UHGV virus genome: UHGV-1567921
DNA from: a virus
Direction: 5' to 3' (one strand)
Length of the DNA: 11,891 bases
In this document: positions 72-6,719 of the stretch, in pieces
How positions within the stretch are numbered: the stretch's first letter is position 1
Layout: every line of letters starts with the position of its first letter
Program-made: the position numbers and the translations under genes
Notes under the pieces: model-generated
What the model was told of the DNA's origin: nothing
The model's database searches: none
The model's input: the letters and a program-made list of their open reading frames with translations, nothing else

Positions 72-776
72 TCACTGGTTGCCTCCTTTGCGAATCTGTT
101 CCGCCCATTCTTCAAGGGATTTCTCCGCATATTTACCGGACAGACCATCAATCGGGTGCGGTTCATTAGCCAACTCTTTTTTCGCTGACAAAATCATGCG
201 TGTAACGTCGAAAACTTCACGCAAAGACTTATTGATAAATCCGTGATTGAACGCAGCAGCAAGACGGCTGGCGGTATAGTTAATCCCCTCGTTGCGTGCT
301 TCCGCACGAATTTCAGCCAGAAAAGCATCGGTAGCTGGAGTTTCGCTGTGGTGTAGGGCATCGTTGATAATCATTGCAGCAACACCAGCCTGCCCTGCAT
401 CCGTGACCGACACATGCTCAAGAGTTACGGCCATTGCGTGTTTCAGCCCGGCGTTCTCTGCCACCAGCGCCGCGAGCTTAGTCTCAAGCGGTGCTATTCG
501 GCACATAGCATCAATATTTGTGTCCTCCAGGCGCTTAATTTCACCAAGTAGCTCCAGTGCAACCTTTGGGTTGAATGCGGCAACATAACGAGCGTTGTTC
601 TCTGCGTTTTTCAGCCCATCAAAGCCGGTCCATTTGATAACATCTTCACATCGTTTATCACCGGGCGTATGCACAGCATACGTACCTGTACCCGTCGAAA
701 TAAACGCGACCCATTCGCCCTGTGTTGCCTGTTTTGCTATCTCACGTAGTGCCTGATAGTTAATTTTGGTTGTCAT
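72..776 (-). CDS. Ea22-like coiled-coil accessory protein (234 aa); family assignment tentative
   Basis: ORF 72..776, stop TGA at 72-74. Its ATG (774-776) overlaps the stop of the upstream gene in an ATGA arrangement. Segments INYQALREIAKQATQGEW and NARYVAAFNPKVALELLGEIKRLE resemble Ead/Ea22-family prophage proteins from memory; no search was run. Confidence 0.55.
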   Translation of the reverse strand: MTTKINYQALREIAKQATQGEWVAFISTGTGTYAVHTPGDKRCEDVIKWTGFDGLKNAENNARYVAAFNPKVALELLGEIKRLEDTNIDAMCRIAPLETKLAALVAENAGLKHAMAVTLEHVSVTDAGQAGVAAMIINDALHHSETPATDAFLAEIRAEARNEGINYTASRLAAAFNHGFINKSLREVFDVTRMILSAKKELANEPHPIDGLSGKYAEKSLEEWAEQIRKGGNQ

Positions 777-1651
777 GCCACCACCTCTTCGAATTTCAAC
801 TCCAATTGATCACCCCAGATTTCACATGACTCTGAACACGAGCCGGTATCGAATCGCCTGGCTTGCACCATCGCCTGATACAAATTTCTGTAGTCGCTGT
901 CGGCATACATTCTGGCAATCCCGTCAAGGCTCAGATGACCACGGTACATAACGTCTTTATTTGTCTTTCGGTGACCATCCCGGACGTGTTTACCTGTAAC
1001 CAGTTCATTAAAAACCCGCATCAGACCAGGTTCGTCTTTACATGCAAGCCCCAGCTTTTGCGTTGACTTTTTGATGCAAAAAACACAGTTCCCTAGGTGC
1101 TCCGGGATTTGCAAATCAAAAGGTTGTTTTCGCCACCACCGGATAACATCCGACTTATCAAAATCTGACAGCTCTGCAAGATACCGGACGCCCGGTTTCG
1201 GTTTCAGCCTGCGGTGTTCGTCCGCACGAATACCCAGCCATGTGATGTAATTCCCTCGCCCAAAATGGTCATCGCAATATTTCGTGAAAGGGGTGAGTTT
1301 TAGCCTGTCAGTACAGAACGCGCCGCCGATGTATGGCGTACCGTACTTTTTAACCATGTCCATAAACGGTTTAAGCACCGGCATTCGCGTCTGAATATCC
1401 TTTGGTTCCCATTCCGTATAACCATTTGGCTGCCCAAGTTCTGGATTTATATCGACCTGCAACACCGTTAGCGGTACGTTCCAGAACTTCACAACCTCAC
1501 GAATAAAGCGATACGTCAGAGGATGTTCACAGCCGGTATCCATAAAAATGAAATGGACGCTAGCGCCAGCTTTTCGCTGTGCTTCCATCAGATGAACGAG
1601 ATAAGCCGATGTTCGTCCACCTGAAAAGCTGACGACTTGATGCATACTCAC
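773..1651 (-). CDS. PAPS-reductase-like PP-loop ATP pyrophosphatase family protein (292 aa)
   Basis: PP-loop motif SFSGGRTS near the N-terminus and FMDTGCEHPLTYRFIREV, matching the CysH-type xxDTGxxFPETYxFI block. GTG start at 1649-1651 with AGGAA 6 nt upstream; alternative ATG at 1643-1645. The stop overlaps the next gene start (ATGA at 773-776). Confidence 0.85.
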   Translation of the reverse strand: MSMHQVVSFSGGRTSAYLVHLMEAQRKAGASVHFIFMDTGCEHPLTYRFIREVVKFWNVPLTVLQVDINPELGQPNGYTEWEPKDIQTRMPVLKPFMDMVKKYGTPYIGGAFCTDRLKLTPFTKYCDDHFGRGNYITWLGIRADEHRRLKPKPGVRYLAELSDFDKSDVIRWWRKQPFDLQIPEHLGNCVFCIKKSTQKLGLACKDEPGLMRVFNELVTGKHVRDGHRKTNKDVMYRGHLSLDGIARMYADSDYRNLYQAMVQARRFDTGSCSESCEIWGDQLELKFEEVVA

Positions 1652-1654
1652 GGT

Positions 1655-2383
1655 TTATTCCTGAATGCGCTTAAACTCGATTACCCACACCCAGGGATTA
1701 GCGTTCCAGCTTTCTTCACCATAGATGGATTCCCACAGGCGCTGGAACGCAACCTTGGCCATTGCGAAATCCCCCTTGGGAGTAAGGAATGTTCCCGGGT
1801 GATCAGGAAGCAAACTTCCAGCAGGCGGAACGCCCTCAGCCCTTGCATCGCATTCGCTGATATCGTTCAACCGTTCAACGCGCACGTTGGTAATTTCCAA
1901 CAGAATGCGTGATGCCCATCGCGGCATGTGAATTGATGGACGCCACCCACCATCAAACTTTTCATTCACAGTGTGAGGTTTCCAGTCGGCATCATCGGGT
2001 ATCGACCATAAGCCGTAATCACCAGGTTTTTGCTCGCAACTGGCCCGATAAATCCTTGCTGCGTTCTTCTCATCGCCACGACAAAGGTTGTCGTTCCAGT
2101 CCACACTGCAACCATCCTCATTGCCTAATATCGCCCATGTTTCACGAACCCAAATTCGATCGCCGACGATACCAAATGGGCAATTGAAAACACTGCTTAC
2201 ACCATCAGCCCCGTACCACTGAAAACCTGCACCAATTTTTCTAACCATCACTGGTGCTTCTGGACCAACTTCCGCAGGCTGATTTTTCATTATCCGCCGC
2301 GTCTGCGTTTTCCTTCCTTCGAGGATGGCCCGGACCATCTCATCGTTGAAAATCATGCCGCGCTCTTTCACTTCGCCTTTCAT
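1655..2383 (-). CDS. ASCH (PUA-like) domain protein with a large internal insertion (242 aa)
   Basis: N-terminal MIFNDEMVRAILEGRKTQTRR and C-terminal WVWVIEFKRI match the two ends of the ASCH fold (compare E. coli YqfB ...ILAGRKTITIR... and ...YVIEFK). ATG at 2381-2383 is preceded by GGGGGA. Stop TAA at 1655-1657 lies 3 nt before the next start. Confidence 0.8.
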   Translation of the reverse strand: MKGEVKERGMIFNDEMVRAILEGRKTQTRRIMKNQPAEVGPEAPVMVRKIGAGFQWYGADGVSSVFNCPFGIVGDRIWVRETWAILGNEDGCSVDWNDNLCRGDEKNAARIYRASCEQKPGDYGLWSIPDDADWKPHTVNEKFDGGWRPSIHMPRWASRILLEITNVRVERLNDISECDARAEGVPPAGSLLPDHPGTFLTPKGDFAMAKVAFQRLWESIYGEESWNANPWVWVIEFKRIQE

Positions 2384-2392
2384 GCATCCCCC

Positions 2393-2479
2393 TTACCCAT
2401 GTGCGACGATGCCGCCAAAAGTGATAGAGAACAGCCAGAAATAGATCGCGGCCATAATGATTTTGAATGCCGTGTTCAT
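2393..2479 (-). CDS. Small hydrophobic protein, 28 aa (MNTAFKIIMAAIYFWLFSITFGGIVAHG), probable single-pass membrane peptide
   Basis: Not in the supplied ORF track (too short). ATG at 2477-2479 with AGGAG 8 nt upstream. Stop TAA at 2393-2395 is followed directly by the GGGGGA Shine-Dalgarno of the ASCH gene, which suggests translational coupling. Confidence 0.4.
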   Translation of the reverse strand: MNTAFKIIMAAIYFWLFSITFGGIVAHG

Positions 2480-2506
2480 ATTTTCAGCTCCTGTGATTGA
2501 TTGGAT

Positions 2507-2540
2507 ACATGCCGCGCCTTGCGGCATGTTTTTATTTTCA
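2507..2540 (+). terminator. GC-rich hairpin followed by a T-tract on the plus strand (intrinsic-terminator-like); on the minus strand it is a 5' UTR stem-loop
   Basis: ACATGCCGC (2507-2515), loop GCCTT, GCGGCATGT (2521-2529): perfect 9-bp stem, followed by TTTTATTTTC (2530-2539). The T-tract is only on the plus-strand side. Confidence 0.45.
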
Positions 2541-2548
2541 CTTTCTCT

Positions 2549-2578
2549 GTTTTAAAAATCAAGATTTATTAGAGCAAT
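2549..2578 (-). promoter_or_regulatory. Copy (a) of the recurring intergenic element ATTGCTCTAATAA-N-TTTTTAAAAC (read on the minus strand); candidate promoter or regulator site
   Basis: The minus strand reads ATTGCTCTAATAAATCTTGATTTTTAAAAC. It matches copy (c) at 4690..4719 at 28 of 32 positions with identical spacing (TTGCTC, 17 nt, TAAAAC). It lies about 100 nt upstream of the next leftward ORF. Confidence 0.35.
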
Positions 2579-3084
2579 TATTGTTGGTGGAGAAGCGCGT
2601 TTTCATACTCCCTGACCATTAACGTAAGTACGCCGTGACTCCTGAAAACACGCGCCACTTCAATCTTATCTTCCAGCGCGAACGCAATTTTACTTAGACC
2701 AATTTTCTTCAGGAGATCAATCTTTGCTGGACCGTCATTTCTGTCATCGGTGGCAGGACGCATAGATAGCAAAGGCTCAGCCCCGTTTGTTACGTACTTC
2801 CGCAGCCAGGCTCGTGTTTTATCCCTTGCGATCTCACAGCGCCCGGTTACAAACCAGACCGTGTAAACGTTAAATAACTGGCGCACCATATCAATAACCG
2901 GAGTGATGGGAGTATCGGTGTCACAGGCGAGATTAAACTCGTTCCAGTCCTTTGTTAATGCACCTTTACCTGGTGGCGGAAGCAAATGCAGTCTGTCTTC
3001 AGTTGCCTCTGATATTGTTCCATCAATATCAACTATGACGATATACGGACGTTCCTGGTGTGCGTGTTTATTGAAAATACTCAA
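2578..3084 (-). CDS. HAD-superfamily phosphatase (168 aa), possibly polynucleotide 3'-phosphatase or nucleotidase-like
   Basis: HAD motif I IVIVDIDGTISE (DxDGT), motif II WFVTGR, and a later K and an ED pair consistent with motifs III/IV. TTG start at 3082-3084 preceded by GAGGAGGG. Stop TAA at 2578-2580. Confidence 0.8.
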   Translation of the reverse strand: MSIFNKHAHQERPYIVIVDIDGTISEATEDRLHLLPPPGKGALTKDWNEFNLACDTDTPITPVIDMVRQLFNVYTVWFVTGRCEIARDKTRAWLRKYVTNGAEPLLSMRPATDDRNDGPAKIDLLKKIGLSKIAFALEDKIEVARVFRSHGVLTLMVREYENALLHQQ

Positions 3085-3103
3085 ATGCCCTCCTCATTGG
3101 ACG

Positions 3104-3137
3104 AAAAAAATGCTGGTGGGCGCACTCCACCAGCATT
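3104..3137 (-). terminator. Rho-independent terminator for leftward transcription
   Basis: AATGCTGGTGG (3109-3119), loop GCGCACT, CCACCAGCATT (3127-3137): perfect 11-bp stem. On the minus strand it is followed by a run of 7 T (plus-strand A-tract 3104-3110). It sits between the 420-aa gene stop (3157) and the HAD gene start. Confidence 0.6.
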
Positions 3138-3156
3138 AAAAGTGACACTGTAACTG

Positions 3157-4419
3157 TCAGCGAACGTAAATAGTGCCGCCGTTCTCTTTTTCCCATGCAT
3201 CGCTACGTGCATAGCAAACATCGAGAAGTCTTCTTGCCGCTGTTTCCTCTAAACCCAATTCGACAACCAACTGCTCATGACGGCGGGTAACCACATCAAA
3301 CAGGGTATGCAACCCTTTAGTTGCCAGATCATCAATGAATTCCGGTTCGAACGGCAGCTCTGCATCTGCCAACATAACCTCTTGCGCCCACTCAACTCGA
3401 CGGACCAATTCCGGGCGGCGGCTTTCCATCTCTTTACAGATCAATTCATGGAAGAACTCTACCCAACCTTCCGGCTGGAACTCGCGGAAAATGGCCAGCG
3501 GCTGGAAGTTTGGCATCAACCATTCGTTGATTCGGATATCAATGGCATAGCCCATGTCGCAGCAGAACTGATAAGCAAAGTCCAGCTTAGAAACGATATA
3601 AGGACGCTCGTTATTGAACTCTTTAGGCGATGAGATCCCATAAGCCAGGAGGCGCGGGAAGAAGGAGATTTGCCCTAACGTCGGATGAAGTTTGCTTGCA
3701 GGGAAACGGCGCTCAGTAATGCCATACATTTCCTTCTTGAGCGTCGCAAATTTGGCATTCTCATTAACCAGCGCGGTAACCTCTGCTTTTTTATTAGCAA
3801 ATGCCACGCGCGCTTCGCTTGCATCTTTAATAGTTTTTTTGAGCTGTTGGTTAAGGTCGGCGACCTGCTTACGCAGTTCCTGTCGCTCGCTTTTAGCTTT
3901 GTTATAGCGTTTCTCAAGGTTAAAAGGATCAAGTTTCATGATCTCTTTATATTGAGATTTTAGCGTTGAAATCTGTGAGTTCCGCAGTTCAACCATCGCG
4001 GTCATTTCATTGAGTTTTGTTTCCAGCTCAATGCTTATACGTTCGGCATTATCAGCACGCTGGTTGGCGTCATGCGTCGCATCGTCGATCGCGTCCTGTT
4101 GCTGGCGTTTCAAATGTTCAATTTGTAGCTGAAGCTCTTCAATTTCTTTACCCTTCAGACCGAGATCCAACTGCATATTTTCAGCTGCATCTACCAGGGA
4201 GTTATGGCTATCAGCTTCTGCGTTATAAACATCAATAAGCTGTGCGTGAAGCATCTCCGCTGACTGAACCGCATTATCAAAAAAACGCGCTGTGAGGTCA
4301 TCACAACTAACGCGGCGTTGCGCGGCCCGGATGTTCTGGATAATGGCCGGGATACCGGCATTCAGGACGTCAGGGATAGATACATTTTCGATTGATTGGT
4401 TTTGTGCTGAAGTGCTCAT
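3157..4419 (-). CDS. Hypothetical protein, 420 aa: long central coiled coil plus C-terminal globular domain, function unknown
   Basis: Long ORF filling the interval with consistent operon packing. The central ~170 residues are heptad-like and rich in E/K/Q/L (EIEELQLQIEHLKRQQQD... KQVADLNQQLKKTIKD...). The C-terminal ~180 aa is aromatic-rich with no motif I recognise. ATG at 4417-4419; stop TGA at 3157-3159. Confidence 0.85.
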   Translation of the reverse strand: MSTSAQNQSIENVSIPDVLNAGIPAIIQNIRAAQRRVSCDDLTARFFDNAVQSAEMLHAQLIDVYNAEADSHNSLVDAAENMQLDLGLKGKEIEELQLQIEHLKRQQQDAIDDATHDANQRADNAERISIELETKLNEMTAMVELRNSQISTLKSQYKEIMKLDPFNLEKRYNKAKSERQELRKQVADLNQQLKKTIKDASEARVAFANKKAEVTALVNENAKFATLKKEMYGITERRFPASKLHPTLGQISFFPRLLAYGISSPKEFNNERPYIVSKLDFAYQFCCDMGYAIDIRINEWLMPNFQPLAIFREFQPEGWVEFFHELICKEMESRRPELVRRVEWAQEVMLADAELPFEPEFIDDLATKGLHTLFDVVTRRHEQLVVELGLEETAARRLLDVCYARSDAWEKENGGTIYVR

Positions 4420-4420
4420 T

Positions 4421-4639
4421 TCAAAGTTCCGTATTAGCTTGTGCTTCGGTCATTTTTCCTAAGTATGAAGGAGGAAGGACTACGCAATTTGTATCCAGTC
4501 CCTCACCTATGGCAGCCTGTAAAATTCTGGCTAAGGTGAGTCTCTTGTTGCGATACCTGGTGATGACATGCCTGATACCGCCGGTCGGTGTAACAAAGGC
4601 GATCAGCCAGTAGTGATATTTCCGTCGGAATGGCCACAT
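4421..4639 (-). CDS. Hypothetical small protein (72 aa)
   Basis: ATG at 4637-4639 with AAGGTG 4 nt upstream. Stop TGA at 4421-4423 is 1 nt before the ATG of the 420-aa gene (coupled). No recognisable motif; composition unremarkable. Confidence 0.4.
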   Translation of the reverse strand: MWPFRRKYHYWLIAFVTPTGGIRHVITRYRNKRLTLARILQAAIGEGLDTNCVVLPPSYLGKMTEAQANTEL

Positions 4640-4653
4640 AGTGCACCTTGTAA

Positions 4654-4719
4654 ATTGCTCTAATAAAAAACGTGATGAGTGTACATCACGTTTTAAAAAT
4701 ATGGAATTATTAGAGCAAT
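4654..4719. repeat. Nested palindrome: 13-bp inverted repeat ATTGCTCTAATAA / TTATTAGAGCAAT enclosing a terminator hairpin
   Basis: ATTGCTCTAATAA at 4654-4666 and its exact reverse complement TTATTAGAGCAAT at 4707-4719. Between them lies a 7-11 bp stem (CGTGATG / CATCACG, extendable with AAAA/TTTT) at 4667-4694. Confidence 0.7.
4665..4699 (-). terminator. Rho-independent terminator downstream of the GT-A-like gene (mainly leftward; weak bidirectional potential)
   Basis: Stem CGTGATG (4671-4677) / CATCACG (4684-4690), loop AGTGTA. On the minus strand the stem is followed by TTTTTTATTA; on the plus strand by TTTT then A-run. Confidence 0.55.
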
Positions 4720-4720
4720 C

Positions 4721-5422
4721 TTATTCTGATTCTCGCTCAAAAAATGAGCTGATAAGGGGAAGCCAATCCTCTGACACTTCGCGAGGTCGCGGTTTGCCGT
4801 GGAAAAAGATTATTCGGCAGTCTTTTGGTAATGCCCCATTCCCCCTGGAGTAACGCGCGCTCGCATATTTTGAACCAGGTTCCACAACATCGGCCTTGTA
4901 ACTTACAAACCATCCTGGATACAGATCCTGAAATGCTGGTGTATCATCGCCCATAACCTTTCGTAAGAACCCCTGGTCACCCCAGCACTCAGTAGTGACA
5001 CAACGAGAAATCCAACCTTCCGGATCTTGCCAGAATGAACTCCAGATATGCGCTTTAACACTATTTGGTATCCACAGGGCACCGCTGCCACGATATTGTG
5101 GATGGTAAAAATCCCTAAGCATGGTGAAACTGGTTGGTGGATGCTCTAGGATTGGGCGTATATCACCGGCAATAACCGTGTCCAAATCCAGATAGAACAG
5201 ATCATCGGTTATATCCGGTCGGAACAACTCGATTTTCGCCCACCAGCCACGGCACTTTTGCCACTGGTTGATCAATGGGATAACTTTGACGCCAGGTACA
5301 TGTAAACACTTCAGGTCTGTCAGGCAAATAATTTCATAGTCTTTTGGCAGTTGATTAACCAGCCACTGCACATCGGAAGCGTTATAGTCACCACCAGAGC
5401 GAAGAACTAAAGCAATCTTCAT
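4721..5422 (-). CDS. Putative GT-A fold (GT8-like, DxD) glycosyltransferase, 233 aa, soluble
   Basis: [11 protein letters not shown] resembles the GT-A DxD nucleotide-sugar motif (compare LgtC ...VLYLDIDVLV...). The N-terminal [17 protein letters not shown] resembles the GT8 N-terminal strand-loop. No transmembrane segment seen. The ATG at 5420-5422 forms an ATGA overlap with the phosphatase stop. Confidence 0.7.
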
Positions 5423-6096
5423 GCTGCACCATCACCTTTCACTTTCATCAATGTCAGGTTTCCGCAAAATACGGCACCAGTGTCGATATACTGCTGATTC
5501 CAGAATGTCTTCGGGCTTTTCACCGGAGTGTGACCAAAGATAAAACGATCTGCGCCCGAAATTTCGCCACCAATATCATCCATCGAATCACTGATACGCT
5601 CGCGCGCCCAGACAACGTTGAAAAGCGGCACCTCCTTACCGAATTGGTATTCATTATCCGGATAGTCGGCATGGGCTATAACGATAGTTTCTTGCCCCGT
5701 GTTCAACTCAATGATATAGGGCAGACGCTTTACCAGCTCCACCAGCGCCCAGGCTAATATTTCCTGATCAGTGTCCAGCATGAAGAACCATTGTCCGCCA
5801 TTCATTAGCCAGTTATTCACGTTGCCATCTGGACTTAACGCATCAATCATCAGCCGCTCATGGTTCCCCATCACTGCCCTGAACCAGGGCATCTGCAATA
5901 GTTCCAGACATTCGACATTTTCAGTACCGCGATCGATAAGGTCGCCGACCGATATCAGTAAATCCTGCGCCGGGTCAAAATCCACACGATGGAGTTCGGA
6001 CATCAGTCTGGTGTAGCAACCATGCAGATCACCAACAACCCAGACATTCCTGTATTTGGTACCGTCGATACGGTGATAAATTGTGGGTGCCATCAT
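5419..6096 (-). CDS. Ser/Thr protein phosphatase, lambda PPase-like (PPP / calcineurin-like metallophosphoesterase)
   Basis: PPP signature motifs GDLHG, GDLIDRG and GNHE, with overall colinearity to lambda ORF221 phosphatase as I recall it ([16 protein letters not shown]... [21 protein letters not shown]... [13 protein letters not shown]). The likely start is ATG 6094-6096, forming an ATGA overlap with the upstream stop; the track's longer start at 6111 adds 5 residues. Confidence 0.9.
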
Positions 6097-6719
6097 GTAT
6101 TCTTCAGCCATTCTTTAAGAGTCATCTGCGGAATACCTCCCATTTTCCCGCATGAAACAACGTCAATCTGTTCACGCGCAGACTGGAATAACAAAGGCAG
6201 GTGACTTAGATTTTTTGGCGTGCCGCCGGAGTGAACGCGTAGTTCTTGCGTAGCGTCAACGCCCACCAGAGCTACATGTTTGAATCCGATATGGAAAGCC
6301 AGGTTCAGAGCACCATATGCACTATTGCCGCTGGCAATTTCATTCTCATCTTCGCAAAGGCCGAAATGTGCGGACCAGCGCCACGCCCACCACTCGGGAG
6401 AATTCGTATTTTTTGGCTCCATGCCGCGTTCAGCCACACGACGGAAGCACAGAACGCCATCTCTGACTTCACGTTCTTTAACATCGGGTAGTGCCATGCA
6501 ATAACAAACACCACGGCGACGGCGGCCACGACCAACGCGCCGCATATTGTCTGGGGATGGATCAAGGGTGAAAAAATAAGAAGCGCGGTTAAGCCAGTCG
6601 ATGGCCCCATTGACCGCTATAATCGGCACTCCGCGCGGCGCAACAAAGTTTGCGGCGCTTGGGCCACTGCCGACGATAATAACGCGATCACTGCCTCTAA
6701 ATTTATTCTTGGGAAACAT
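6093..6719 (-). CDS. Putative nucleotide-sugar glycosyltransferase, CstII (GT42) / MptE-like (DUF115) fold, 208 aa; paralog 1
   Basis: N-terminal [14 protein letters not shown]...VPIIAVNGA resembles the CstII sialyltransferase N-terminus (VIIAGNGPSL...). [26 protein letters not shown] resembles the CstII block TSGVYMCAVAIALGYKEIYLSGID. Clearly paralogous to the next gene. Confidence 0.7.

Follow-up and report, generated by a model that had tools for sequence, protein, structure and literature searches.

The pmgR-pmgS operon of a P1-like phage-plasmid: a C1-controlled gene pair with a possible role in phage DNA handling

Introduction

The gene pair pmgR-pmgS is a catalogued part of bacteriophage P1, and was encountered here in a stretch of 11,891 nucleotides (the window) from the virus genome UHGV-1567921. 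By sequence comparison, positions 3157-4639 (minus strand) of the window are the pmgR-pmgS operon of a phage-plasmid of the P1/P7 type (Punavirus); this identity is certain, and the object is an already known one rather than a discovery. We propose, with about an even chance of being right, that pmgR and pmgS are an early, C1-repressed pair for DNA handling, in which PmgS would be a dispensable tether or adaptor and PmgR a low-copy cofactor for packaging or head completion. What is new is the domain layout of PmgS, the placement of its family, PHROG 1660, after RecT, RecE and Gam genes in other phages, and the restricted range of PmgR.

Both genes have been studied genetically in P1. In-frame knockout of pmgR gives no infectious particles, and plaques are restored in trans (Gonzales et al. 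2022, PMC9024508). ΔpmgR lysates contain tails and incomplete heads, unjoined, and those of the ΔpacA packaging control contain proheads and tails (PMC9024508). In the same work PmgR was not detected in virions, HHpred analysis of PmgR gave nothing, and PmgS is unmentioned in the main text, the virion proteome table included (PMC9024508). The published ΔpmgS phage is viable, producing infectious virions with normal plating and normal anti-restriction on EcoA, EcoB and EcoK hosts. In a CRISPR interference (CRISPRi) screen pmgR and pmgS were both scored as non-essential, pmgR being listed as a known essential gene that had been missed (PMC10695390). Knock-down without loss of plating, taken together with essentiality by knockout, would fit with PmgR being sufficient in small amounts. 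In a comparison of 77 P1-like phage-plasmids, both genes were among the 21 most conserved (PMC9603915).

Results

Positions 3000-4800 of the window were identical to P7 at 99.3% of nucleotides and to P1 at 98.9%, within an alignment to P1 that extends from about position 1690 to 11817 at 99.2% identity. The gene order pmgQ, Op86a/b, pmgR, pmgS, pap is that of the annotated P1 and P7 records, and synteny with the annotated regions of both phages extends to the two inverted C1 operators. The first open reading frame (ORF), pmgR (shtA in P7; 4421-4639, minus strand), encodes a protein of 72 amino acids that belongs to PHROG 3177 and is 100% identical to PmgR of P1 and P7. The second, pmgS (shtB in P7; 3157-4419, minus strand), encodes 420 amino acids that are 99.3-99.8% identical to PmgS of the same phages. 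The original prediction, made from the sequence before any database search, had described two ORFs of these sizes coupled through TGA, one nucleotide and ATG, and the junction indeed reads ...CTT TGA A ATG AGC..., with a single base between stop and start. All of the other elements that it described were likewise located where it had put them, or no more than a few bases away. Since pmgR is preceded by a good Shine-Dalgarno sequence (AAGGTG) and no obvious one was seen for pmgS, translational coupling of pmgS to pmgR is plausible. A short imperfect palindrome containing GTGCAC lies over the ribosome-binding site and start codon of pmgR (4636-4651); this stretch is not kept in aligned relatives, and the palindrome is therefore probably fortuitous.

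The cassette was present at 97-99.5% identity in 677 of 5,426 complete Escherichia coli genomes, and distant P1-like elements retain the pair even where protein identity has fallen to 26-35%, a spread and retention far beyond chance. Of the 687 copies in E. coli, 674 are on plasmids. Together with the listing among the 21 most conserved genes, this location identifies the pair as core to the mobile element, and not as variable cargo or as a component of the host's core genome. The proposal of an accessory cargo cassette is not supported, in view of this conservation (PMC9603915) and of the essentiality of pmgR (PMC9024508). Residence in non-mobile core genomes, which had been named as an observation that would speak against the original prediction, is not the picture seen, with 674 of 687 copies on plasmids.

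Upstream of pmgR, a palindrome or terminator had been placed at 4654-4719. The palindrome is real and contains a terminator-like inner hairpin, but its outer arms proved to be C1 operators and not a terminator stem. These arms (4654-4666 and 4707-4719) are perfect over 13 nucleotides, and each of the two exactly repeats the operator core ATTGCTCTAATAA of the C1 repressor. Coordinates of operators and promoter were carried over from the P1 GenBank annotation AF234172 (window coordinate = coordinate in locus L001 minus 2999). Operator OpmgRa (formerly Op86a; 4703-4719, minus strand, core 4707-4719) overlaps the predicted -35 element of the promoter PpmgR. Operator OpmgRb (formerly Op86b; 4654-4670, plus strand, core 4654-4666) is inverted with respect to OpmgRa and separates the promoter from the ribosome-binding site of pmgR. 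Both are kept in the alignment of relatives with 53-70% PmgS protein identity. PpmgR itself is a predicted sigma-70 promoter (4690-4718, minus strand) with a -35 element TTGCTC at 4713-4718 and a -10 element TAAAAC at 4690-4695; a consensus promoter scan called no promoter at this position. Two inverted C1 operators around the promoter would leave the pair off in the prophage and on after C1 inactivation. The -22 box of P1 late promoters was not found near pmgR, in what was a weak test, as the composite box-plus-10 pattern also missed the annotated late promoter LP26, whose spacing from box to -10 differs from that of LPhot. The P1 record likewise annotates no late promoter before pmgR.

Nested inside the outer arms is a second perfect inverted repeat of 11 nucleotides (4667-4677/4684-4694). 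In the minus-strand transcript it would form a terminator-like hairpin (4661-4694) in which the arms 4684-4694 and 4667-4677 enclose a 6-nucleotide loop and are followed by UUUUUUAUUA. The inner hairpin folds at -13.4 kcal/mol (z = -4.45) and the composite upstream element at -29.3 kcal/mol (z = -7.6). When five sequences with 53-100% PmgS identity were aligned, 96% of the cells of the inner stem were paired, against 39-70% with slid partners, and three pairs had changed on both sides. A U-run follows the hairpin in four of the five sequences and the stem base is A/U-rich; an automatic terminator scan did not flag the structure. The annotated -10 sits in the left arm of the hairpin, and the loop hexamer TACACT (4678-4683; TATCAT or TATTAT in relatives, conserved as TANNNT) is an alternative -10 candidate. 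With either -10 in the arm or loop, transcripts from PpmgR would start in or past the hairpin, lack its left arm and so escape termination. Only read-through RNA from pmgQ would form the hairpin, which would then stop transcription arriving from the pmgN-pmgQ operon. As the hairpin overlaps the predicted promoter, it may also have a role at the DNA level. We read the upstream element, from its sequence, as chiefly a pair of repressor sites with a promoter, containing a structurally kept terminator-like hairpin.

Downstream of pmgS and upstream of pap, sequence and folding predict an intrinsic terminator on the minus strand at 3102-3137 (stem 3109-3119/3127-3137). It has an 11-bp stem with 6 G-C pairs, a 7-nucleotide loop and 7 T, lies 20 nucleotides past the pmgS stop, and its region folds at -22.5 kcal/mol. 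The strong terminator anticipated at 3104-3137 is therefore present, with its stem at 3109-3137 and the features expected of a Rho-independent terminator, namely a G+C-rich stem-loop and a direct U-run after a stop codon. A hairpin with T-run of different sequence was found at the same place in Cronobacter phage JK004, in the Logan contig L099 from the clade with 70% identity, and in L003, whose clade has just 26% identity in PmgS; the relatives L097 and L098 show it less clearly. The description of the locus as an insulated two-gene unit is borne out by its own repressor-controlled promoter region, the hairpin before it and the terminator behind it, a layout kept in diverged relatives.

The PmgS protein, originally left without a family, is acidic (pI 5.2) and matches PHROG 1660 over its full length (E = 1.1e-195; residues 1-420 against profile positions 1-403 of 405), and it carries a recognizable tandem helix-hairpin-helix, (HhH)2, domain. 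An AlphaFold2 (AF2) model was obtained with a mean predicted local distance difference test score (pLDDT) of 72 and a predicted template modelling score (pTM) of 0.37. Residues 41-232 (3724-4299, minus strand) contain two long helices, 41-160 and 167-232, in keeping with the long coiled coil that had been expected, and in the model these are predicted to fold back on each other as an antiparallel coiled-coil arm. The apex of the arm is a conserved break, KE..L.LDP..L (residues 158-168; 3916-3948, minus strand). No N-terminal motif is better conserved: K158, L163, D164, P165 and L168 are invariant in alignment A2, and across 62 family representatives just three positions, P165 among them, are nearly invariant. 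The following region (residues 233-345; 3385-3723, minus strand) is a family-specific, aromatic-rich α/β domain with no assignable fold and with the motifs LDF.YQ, RINEWL.P and RP.LV.R.EWA (alignments A1 and A2). Phe, Trp and Tyr make up 15.9% of its residues compared with 4.7% in the coiled coil, so that the aromatic-rich C-terminal part is likewise confirmed. Its pLDDT in the AF2 model is 37-73, with low confidence for the α/β region 241-300, and across the 62 members no recurrent Pfam match was seen for it.

At the C terminus (residues 346-412; 3184-3384, minus strand), PmgS has a predicted (HhH)2 domain of the type found in the RAD51/RadA N terminus, in the C-terminal domain of the RNA polymerase α subunit (αCTD) and in the acidic repeats (AR) of NusA. 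Two HhH motifs in a compact five-helix domain were recognized in the predicted structure, where pLDDT is 82-89. When the family profile was compared with the Protein Data Bank (PDB), there were matches to the RAD51 N-terminal domain (1b22, E = 9.5e-8), αCTD (1doq, E = 1.2e-6) and NusA (E = 1e-3). Among the 62 members, the Pfam model HHH_5 matched 18 and RNA_pol_A_CTD matched 13 (best E = 5e-7). PmgS of P1 itself falls below the Pfam thresholds for this domain, and its copy is without the canonical GIG hairpin, having ELGLEET instead. Scans of PmgS with Pfam, NCBIfam and PADLOC gave sub-threshold coiled-coil matches only, those from PADLOC being LmuB and JetC (E = 1e-4 to 1e-2). No P-loop motif was found in PmgS, which, with only three nearly invariant positions in the family, argues for an adaptor rather than an enzyme. 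Some public protein records (P0002, P0016) fuse PmgS to a cytosine methyltransferase or metallophosphatase domain; these are single-member clusters and most likely gene-calling or assembly artefacts.

An exhaustive profile search for PmgS returned 119 cluster representatives (E ≤ 1e-3), mostly of 350-470 amino acids. Close homologues occur only on P1-like contigs of about 90-98 kb, and a scan with the P1-like alignment gave near-identical P1 loci only. The distant homologues examined all belong to PHROG 1660 (E = 1e-55 to 1e-120). Outside the P1-like phages, the PmgS-like gene lies in the early DNA-metabolism arm and not in the virion module. In 8 of 12 non-P1 loci, a recombination exonuclease, annealing protein or Gam is encoded no more than two genes upstream in the same direction. 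Pseudomonas phage 15b has the order RecT-like, Mu-Gam-like, PmgS-like, and the IMG/VR contig L085 has exonuclease, Mu-Gam-like, PmgS-like. In Aeromonas phage phiARM81mr, exoVIII, RecT, an integrase and a small gene precede the PmgS-like gene, which is followed by a hypothetical gene, a Dam methylase and an exonuclease. Prophages of Brenneria, Yersinia and Serratia carry a single-strand annealing protein (SSAP), a RecE-like exonuclease and then the PmgS-like gene; a RecE-like exonuclease is directly upstream in a Pectobacterium prophage, and an exonuclease two genes upstream in a Citrobacter prophage.

DNA methyltransferases were a second recurrent neighbour: in four unrelated phages such a gene (L089 5914-6576, L094 5684-6316, L090 6297-6875 and L095 4674-5780) adjoins the PmgS-like gene or is one to two genes away from it. 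The PmgS-like gene adjoins DNA methyltransferases in two Vibrio phages and an 86-kb viral contig, and in Aeromonas ST4 it follows a restriction-endonuclease-like gene. A conserved protein of 140-160 amino acids, 36-76% identical across genera, is encoded downstream of the PmgS-like gene in Enterobacterales prophages and Pseudomonas phages (L100 7142-7561, L105 7083-7559, L106 7151-7573, L093 6092-6571, L085 6263-6742). In L100, L106 and L093 its reading frame begins next to the PmgS-like stop or overlaps it, and in L085 a 104-amino acid ORF lies between the two; some copies match phrog_4183 (unknown function). This protein may be the partner of PmgS-like proteins there, in place of PmgR.

PmgR is a basic protein (pI 10.1) with a predicted small α/β fold of topology β-β-α-β-α (AF2, pLDDT 80). 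A PmgR homologue is encoded directly upstream of the PmgS homologue in the clade with 53% PmgS identity, in that with 26% (PmgR identity 35%, E = 4e-13) and in phage D6 (31%, E = 3e-6), the pairing thus being kept across three diverged P1-like lineages. Pfam, NCBIfam and PADLOC scans of PmgR gave no match, and a Foldseek search with PmgR against viral models returned nothing but uncharacterised proteins of N4-like phages. These remote relatives are N-terminal halves of proteins from N4-like Pseudomonas phages (reciprocal PHROG E = 1e-5 to 1e-6; Foldseek TM 0.72-0.80), where they stand at the end of the replication gene block; in LIT1 the gene comes after those for primase, Sak4, SSB, gp48-like and gp46-like proteins. 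PmgR-like proteins were found only in P1-like phages and, remotely, in these N4-like phages. A PmgR profile search beside PmgS-like genes outside the P1-like phages found no PmgR-like ORF, and PmgR was accordingly rejected as a universal partner of PmgS.

The wider surroundings of the pair were also examined. Four C1-operator cores were found in the window against 0.28 expected, three of them exact copies of ATTGCTCTAATAA and one with a single mismatch. They lie at 2566-2578 (minus), 4654-4666 (plus), 4707-4719 (minus) and 8327-8339 (plus), corresponding to P1 Op88, Op86b, Op86a and Op82, and would split the leftward block into several repressor-controlled units. Neighbours on the same strand include pap, encoding a PNKP-type 3'-phosphatase, ppp, encoding a λ-type metallophosphatase, a gene for a PAPS-reductase-like protein, and pmgM, with a weak VRR-NUC match; these are early enzymes and not structural genes. 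Weak MptE-like (DUF115) matches were obtained for pmgO and pmgP. In published screens all genes of the block 72-8269 (minus strand) are dispensable except pmgR, and the view of the surroundings as dispensable early genes agrees with the CRISPRi data. The 'pmg' (putative morphogenetic) names in this block seem unfounded, as most of the products look like early enzymes.

The left end of the window (about 1-1690) does not align to reference P1, differs from P7 as well, and matches the P1-like phage-plasmids vB_EcoM-Ro157c2YLVW and vB_EcoM-813R1. Genes for an Ead/Ea22-like protein (72-776) and for a protein with a PAPS-reductase domain (773-1651) lie in this part, which coincides with the published hypervariable region of P1-like plasmids (pmgT-humD). 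Just past the pap stop, adjoining Op88, a perfect 10-bp G+C-rich hairpin with a T-run lies on the plus strand (2507-2529) and overlaps an ORF of 44 amino acids (2393-2527, minus strand). Convergent or antisense transcription may be terminated by this hairpin.

Discussion

According to the proposed explanation, C1 bound at the flanking operators would shut pmgRS off in the prophage, and inactivation of C1 would switch the pair on at once. PmgS would then serve as a non-enzymatic tether or adaptor in early recombination or end-processing of replicating phage DNA, and not as a capsid scaffold: contact with DNA, or with a protein bound to DNA, would be made by its (HhH)2 domain, and its coiled coil would drive multimerisation. 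PmgR would be a basic, low-copy cofactor that acts at the stage of packaging processed DNA and completing heads, so that the head and tail phenotype of ΔpmgR would reflect a failure of packaging or head completion, not the loss of a bulk structural protein.

Several points weigh against this explanation. Its functional part is argued from guilt by association and a predicted domain, and the one phenotype known from experiment, seen in ΔpmgR, is a morphological one. Genuine tail operons can likewise have C1 operators in front of them (O26 before genes 26 and 25), so that repressor control is compatible with a morphogenetic role. P1 has no RecET pair beside pmgS, PmgR is absent from the phages in which a PmgS-like gene follows RecET, and the homology of PmgR to N4-like proteins is weak (tblastn E = 3e-3). 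The AF2 model of PmgS is of moderate quality (pLDDT 72, pTM 0.37), with a poorly predicted middle domain. The (HhH)2 domain of P1 has a net charge of -8 (residues 350-412) and a pI of 4.5 (residues 346-420), acidity extends to the whole family (median pI 5.4), in which the charge of the domain ranges from -9 to +4. With so acidic a domain, direct DNA binding is not assured, and by analogy with the acidic repeats of NusA, protein binding would be equally possible.

A broader and more tentative reading, to which we give clearly less than an even chance, is that PHROG 1660 is an unrecognised accessory of phage homologous-recombination modules, mis-annotated as head morphogenesis. PmgS-like proteins, as non-enzymatic coiled-coil tethers with an (HhH)2 domain of the RAD51 N-terminal type, would then act with RecT-, RecE- and Gam-type proteins on replicating phage DNA. 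In P1-like phages the protein would have become the partner of PmgR, and PmgR would hand processed DNA to packaging or head completion, which would explain the 'morphogenetic' phenotype of an early, non-virion protein. The 'head morphogenesis' label of PHROG 1660 is probably wrong. ΔpmgS is viable, the protein does not appear in the virion proteome text, and family members lie in RecET/Gam modules, none of which is what a head-morphogenesis role would lead one to find; the label goes back to the name 'putative morphogenetic function' and not to an experiment.

That both genes are morphogenetic as annotated, with PmgS acting in assembly as a coiled-coil chaperone or scaffold-like factor, redundant under laboratory conditions, we consider unlikely. 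This explanation draws on the ΔpmgR phenotype, in which tails are made along with incomplete heads, but virions are not, complementation occurs in trans, and the picture resembles that of ΔpmgC, the gene of a predicted connector-complex protein (PMC9024508). It would also fit the P7 names shtA and shtB (sheath), the annotation of the D6 homologue as a putative prohead scaffolding protein, the filing of PHROG 1660 under head and packaging, the neighbouring tail operon that is likewise under C1 operators, and a weak match to the Pfam Phage_scaffold model (E = 0.77). These labels, however, stem from a 'putative' name rather than from experiment. P1 can do without PmgS, which is missing from the reported virion proteome; PmgR was undetected in virions, and a late promoter was neither found (with a weak search pattern) nor annotated. 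The two genes are surrounded by those of early enzymes, a long way from the ones for capsid and protease, and PmgS has an (HhH)2 domain of the RAD51 N-terminal type. PHROG 1660 members come next after RecT, RecE or Gam in phages whose virion modules are unrelated, and the lack of effect of pmgR CRISPRi is unexpected for a bulk structural protein.

Two further explanations we regard as improbable. In one, the pair serves transcription or host takeover: the acidic (HhH)2 domain would mimic αCTD or the NusA repeats and bind host RNA polymerase, NusA or another DNA-binding protein, and PmgR would be a small basic regulator needed to express one head-completion or packaging function. Matches of 13 of the 62 members to RNA_pol_A_CTD (best E = 5e-7) and of the PDB profile to αCTD (E = 1e-6) and NusA (E = 1e-3), the acidity of the P1 domain, which resembles that of NusA AR, the early, repressor-controlled expression of the pair and the low dose of pmgR that suffices under CRISPRi are consistent with it. 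Yet HHH_5, the RAD51 N-terminal domain and αCTD are one fold class and do not discriminate, the RAD51 type scores best, and the consistent neighbours are recombination genes, not regulators; ΔpmgR still makes heads and tails, so late transcription is globally intact. In the other, which follows the original prediction, the pair would have an accessory function in anti-defence, superinfection exclusion or host killing, for example as an acidic coiled-coil decoy that would block a nuclease such as RecBCD or a defence sensing recombination proteins or DNA ends. An insulated unit among dispensable early genes that encodes an acidic, coiled-coil protein would be in line with this, as would the homologues that stand elsewhere at the position of end-protection genes such as Gam and by methyltransferases, and the lack of a ΔpmgS phenotype on a laboratory host poor in defences. 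Against it, pmgR is essential on a restriction-less host, both genes are core and near-invariant in P1-like plasmids, and ΔpmgS plates normally and keeps its anti-restriction against three type I systems. Known defence and anti-defence models match PmgS only as coiled-coil noise and PmgR not at all (PADLOC), and two phages carry both a Mu-Gam-like and a PmgS-like gene, which argues that PmgS is not a simple substitute for Gam.

Annotation pipelines carry the 'PmgS-like head morphogenesis' label into many phages and prophages, where it probably conceals a candidate accessory factor of recombination that could be of relevance for recombineering. Few of the essential genes of P1 lack a known mechanism; pmgR is among them, and its genomic company suggests DNA processing and packaging and not the neck only. 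The promoter design is also of interest for its compactness, with two inverted repressor operators around a structurally kept hairpin that overlaps the promoter.

Compared with pmgR-pmgS of P1, the locus has the same flanking genes (pmgQ and pap), the same operator pair and the same predicted promoter, and nothing of substance differs within the cassette. Like prohead scaffolding proteins, PmgS is helical, rich in coiled coil and acidic; unlike them, it is dispensable, is not encoded next to capsid, protease or portal genes, showed no late promoter in a weak search, has an (HhH)2 domain and occurs elsewhere in recombination modules. The Pfam Phage_scaffold model reached 10 bits against a cut-off of 35 (E = 0.77), and a scaffolding role was rejected on location, timing and dispensability. 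With SMC and Rad50 proteins, the PmgS model shares a long, predicted antiparallel coiled-coil arm and a conserved apex, but PmgS has only 420 residues and is without ATPase head, Walker motifs, hinge or zinc hook. SMC, Rad50, JetC and LmuB models scored 15-23 bits against cut-offs of 300-1000, through the coiled coil only (SMC and Rad50 alone, 15-22 bits against 567-1000), and membership was rejected since there is no ATPase head. The PmgS family profile matches the N-terminal domains of RAD51, RadA and RAD51C, αCTD and the NusA repeats at E = 1e-7 to 1e-6; in contrast to those proteins, PmgS carries the domain at its C terminus on a coiled coil, without a RecA-type ATPase core or an RNA polymerase or NusA body. 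λ Gam is likewise a small, acidic, helical dimer. No similarity of sequence or fold between PmgS and λ Gam or Mu Gam was found, and Mu-Gam-like genes coexist with a PmgS-like gene in two phages. As for the accessory genes of Red and RecET modules, PmgS-like genes share their position, following an SSAP, exonuclease or Gam in 8 of the 12 non-P1 loci.

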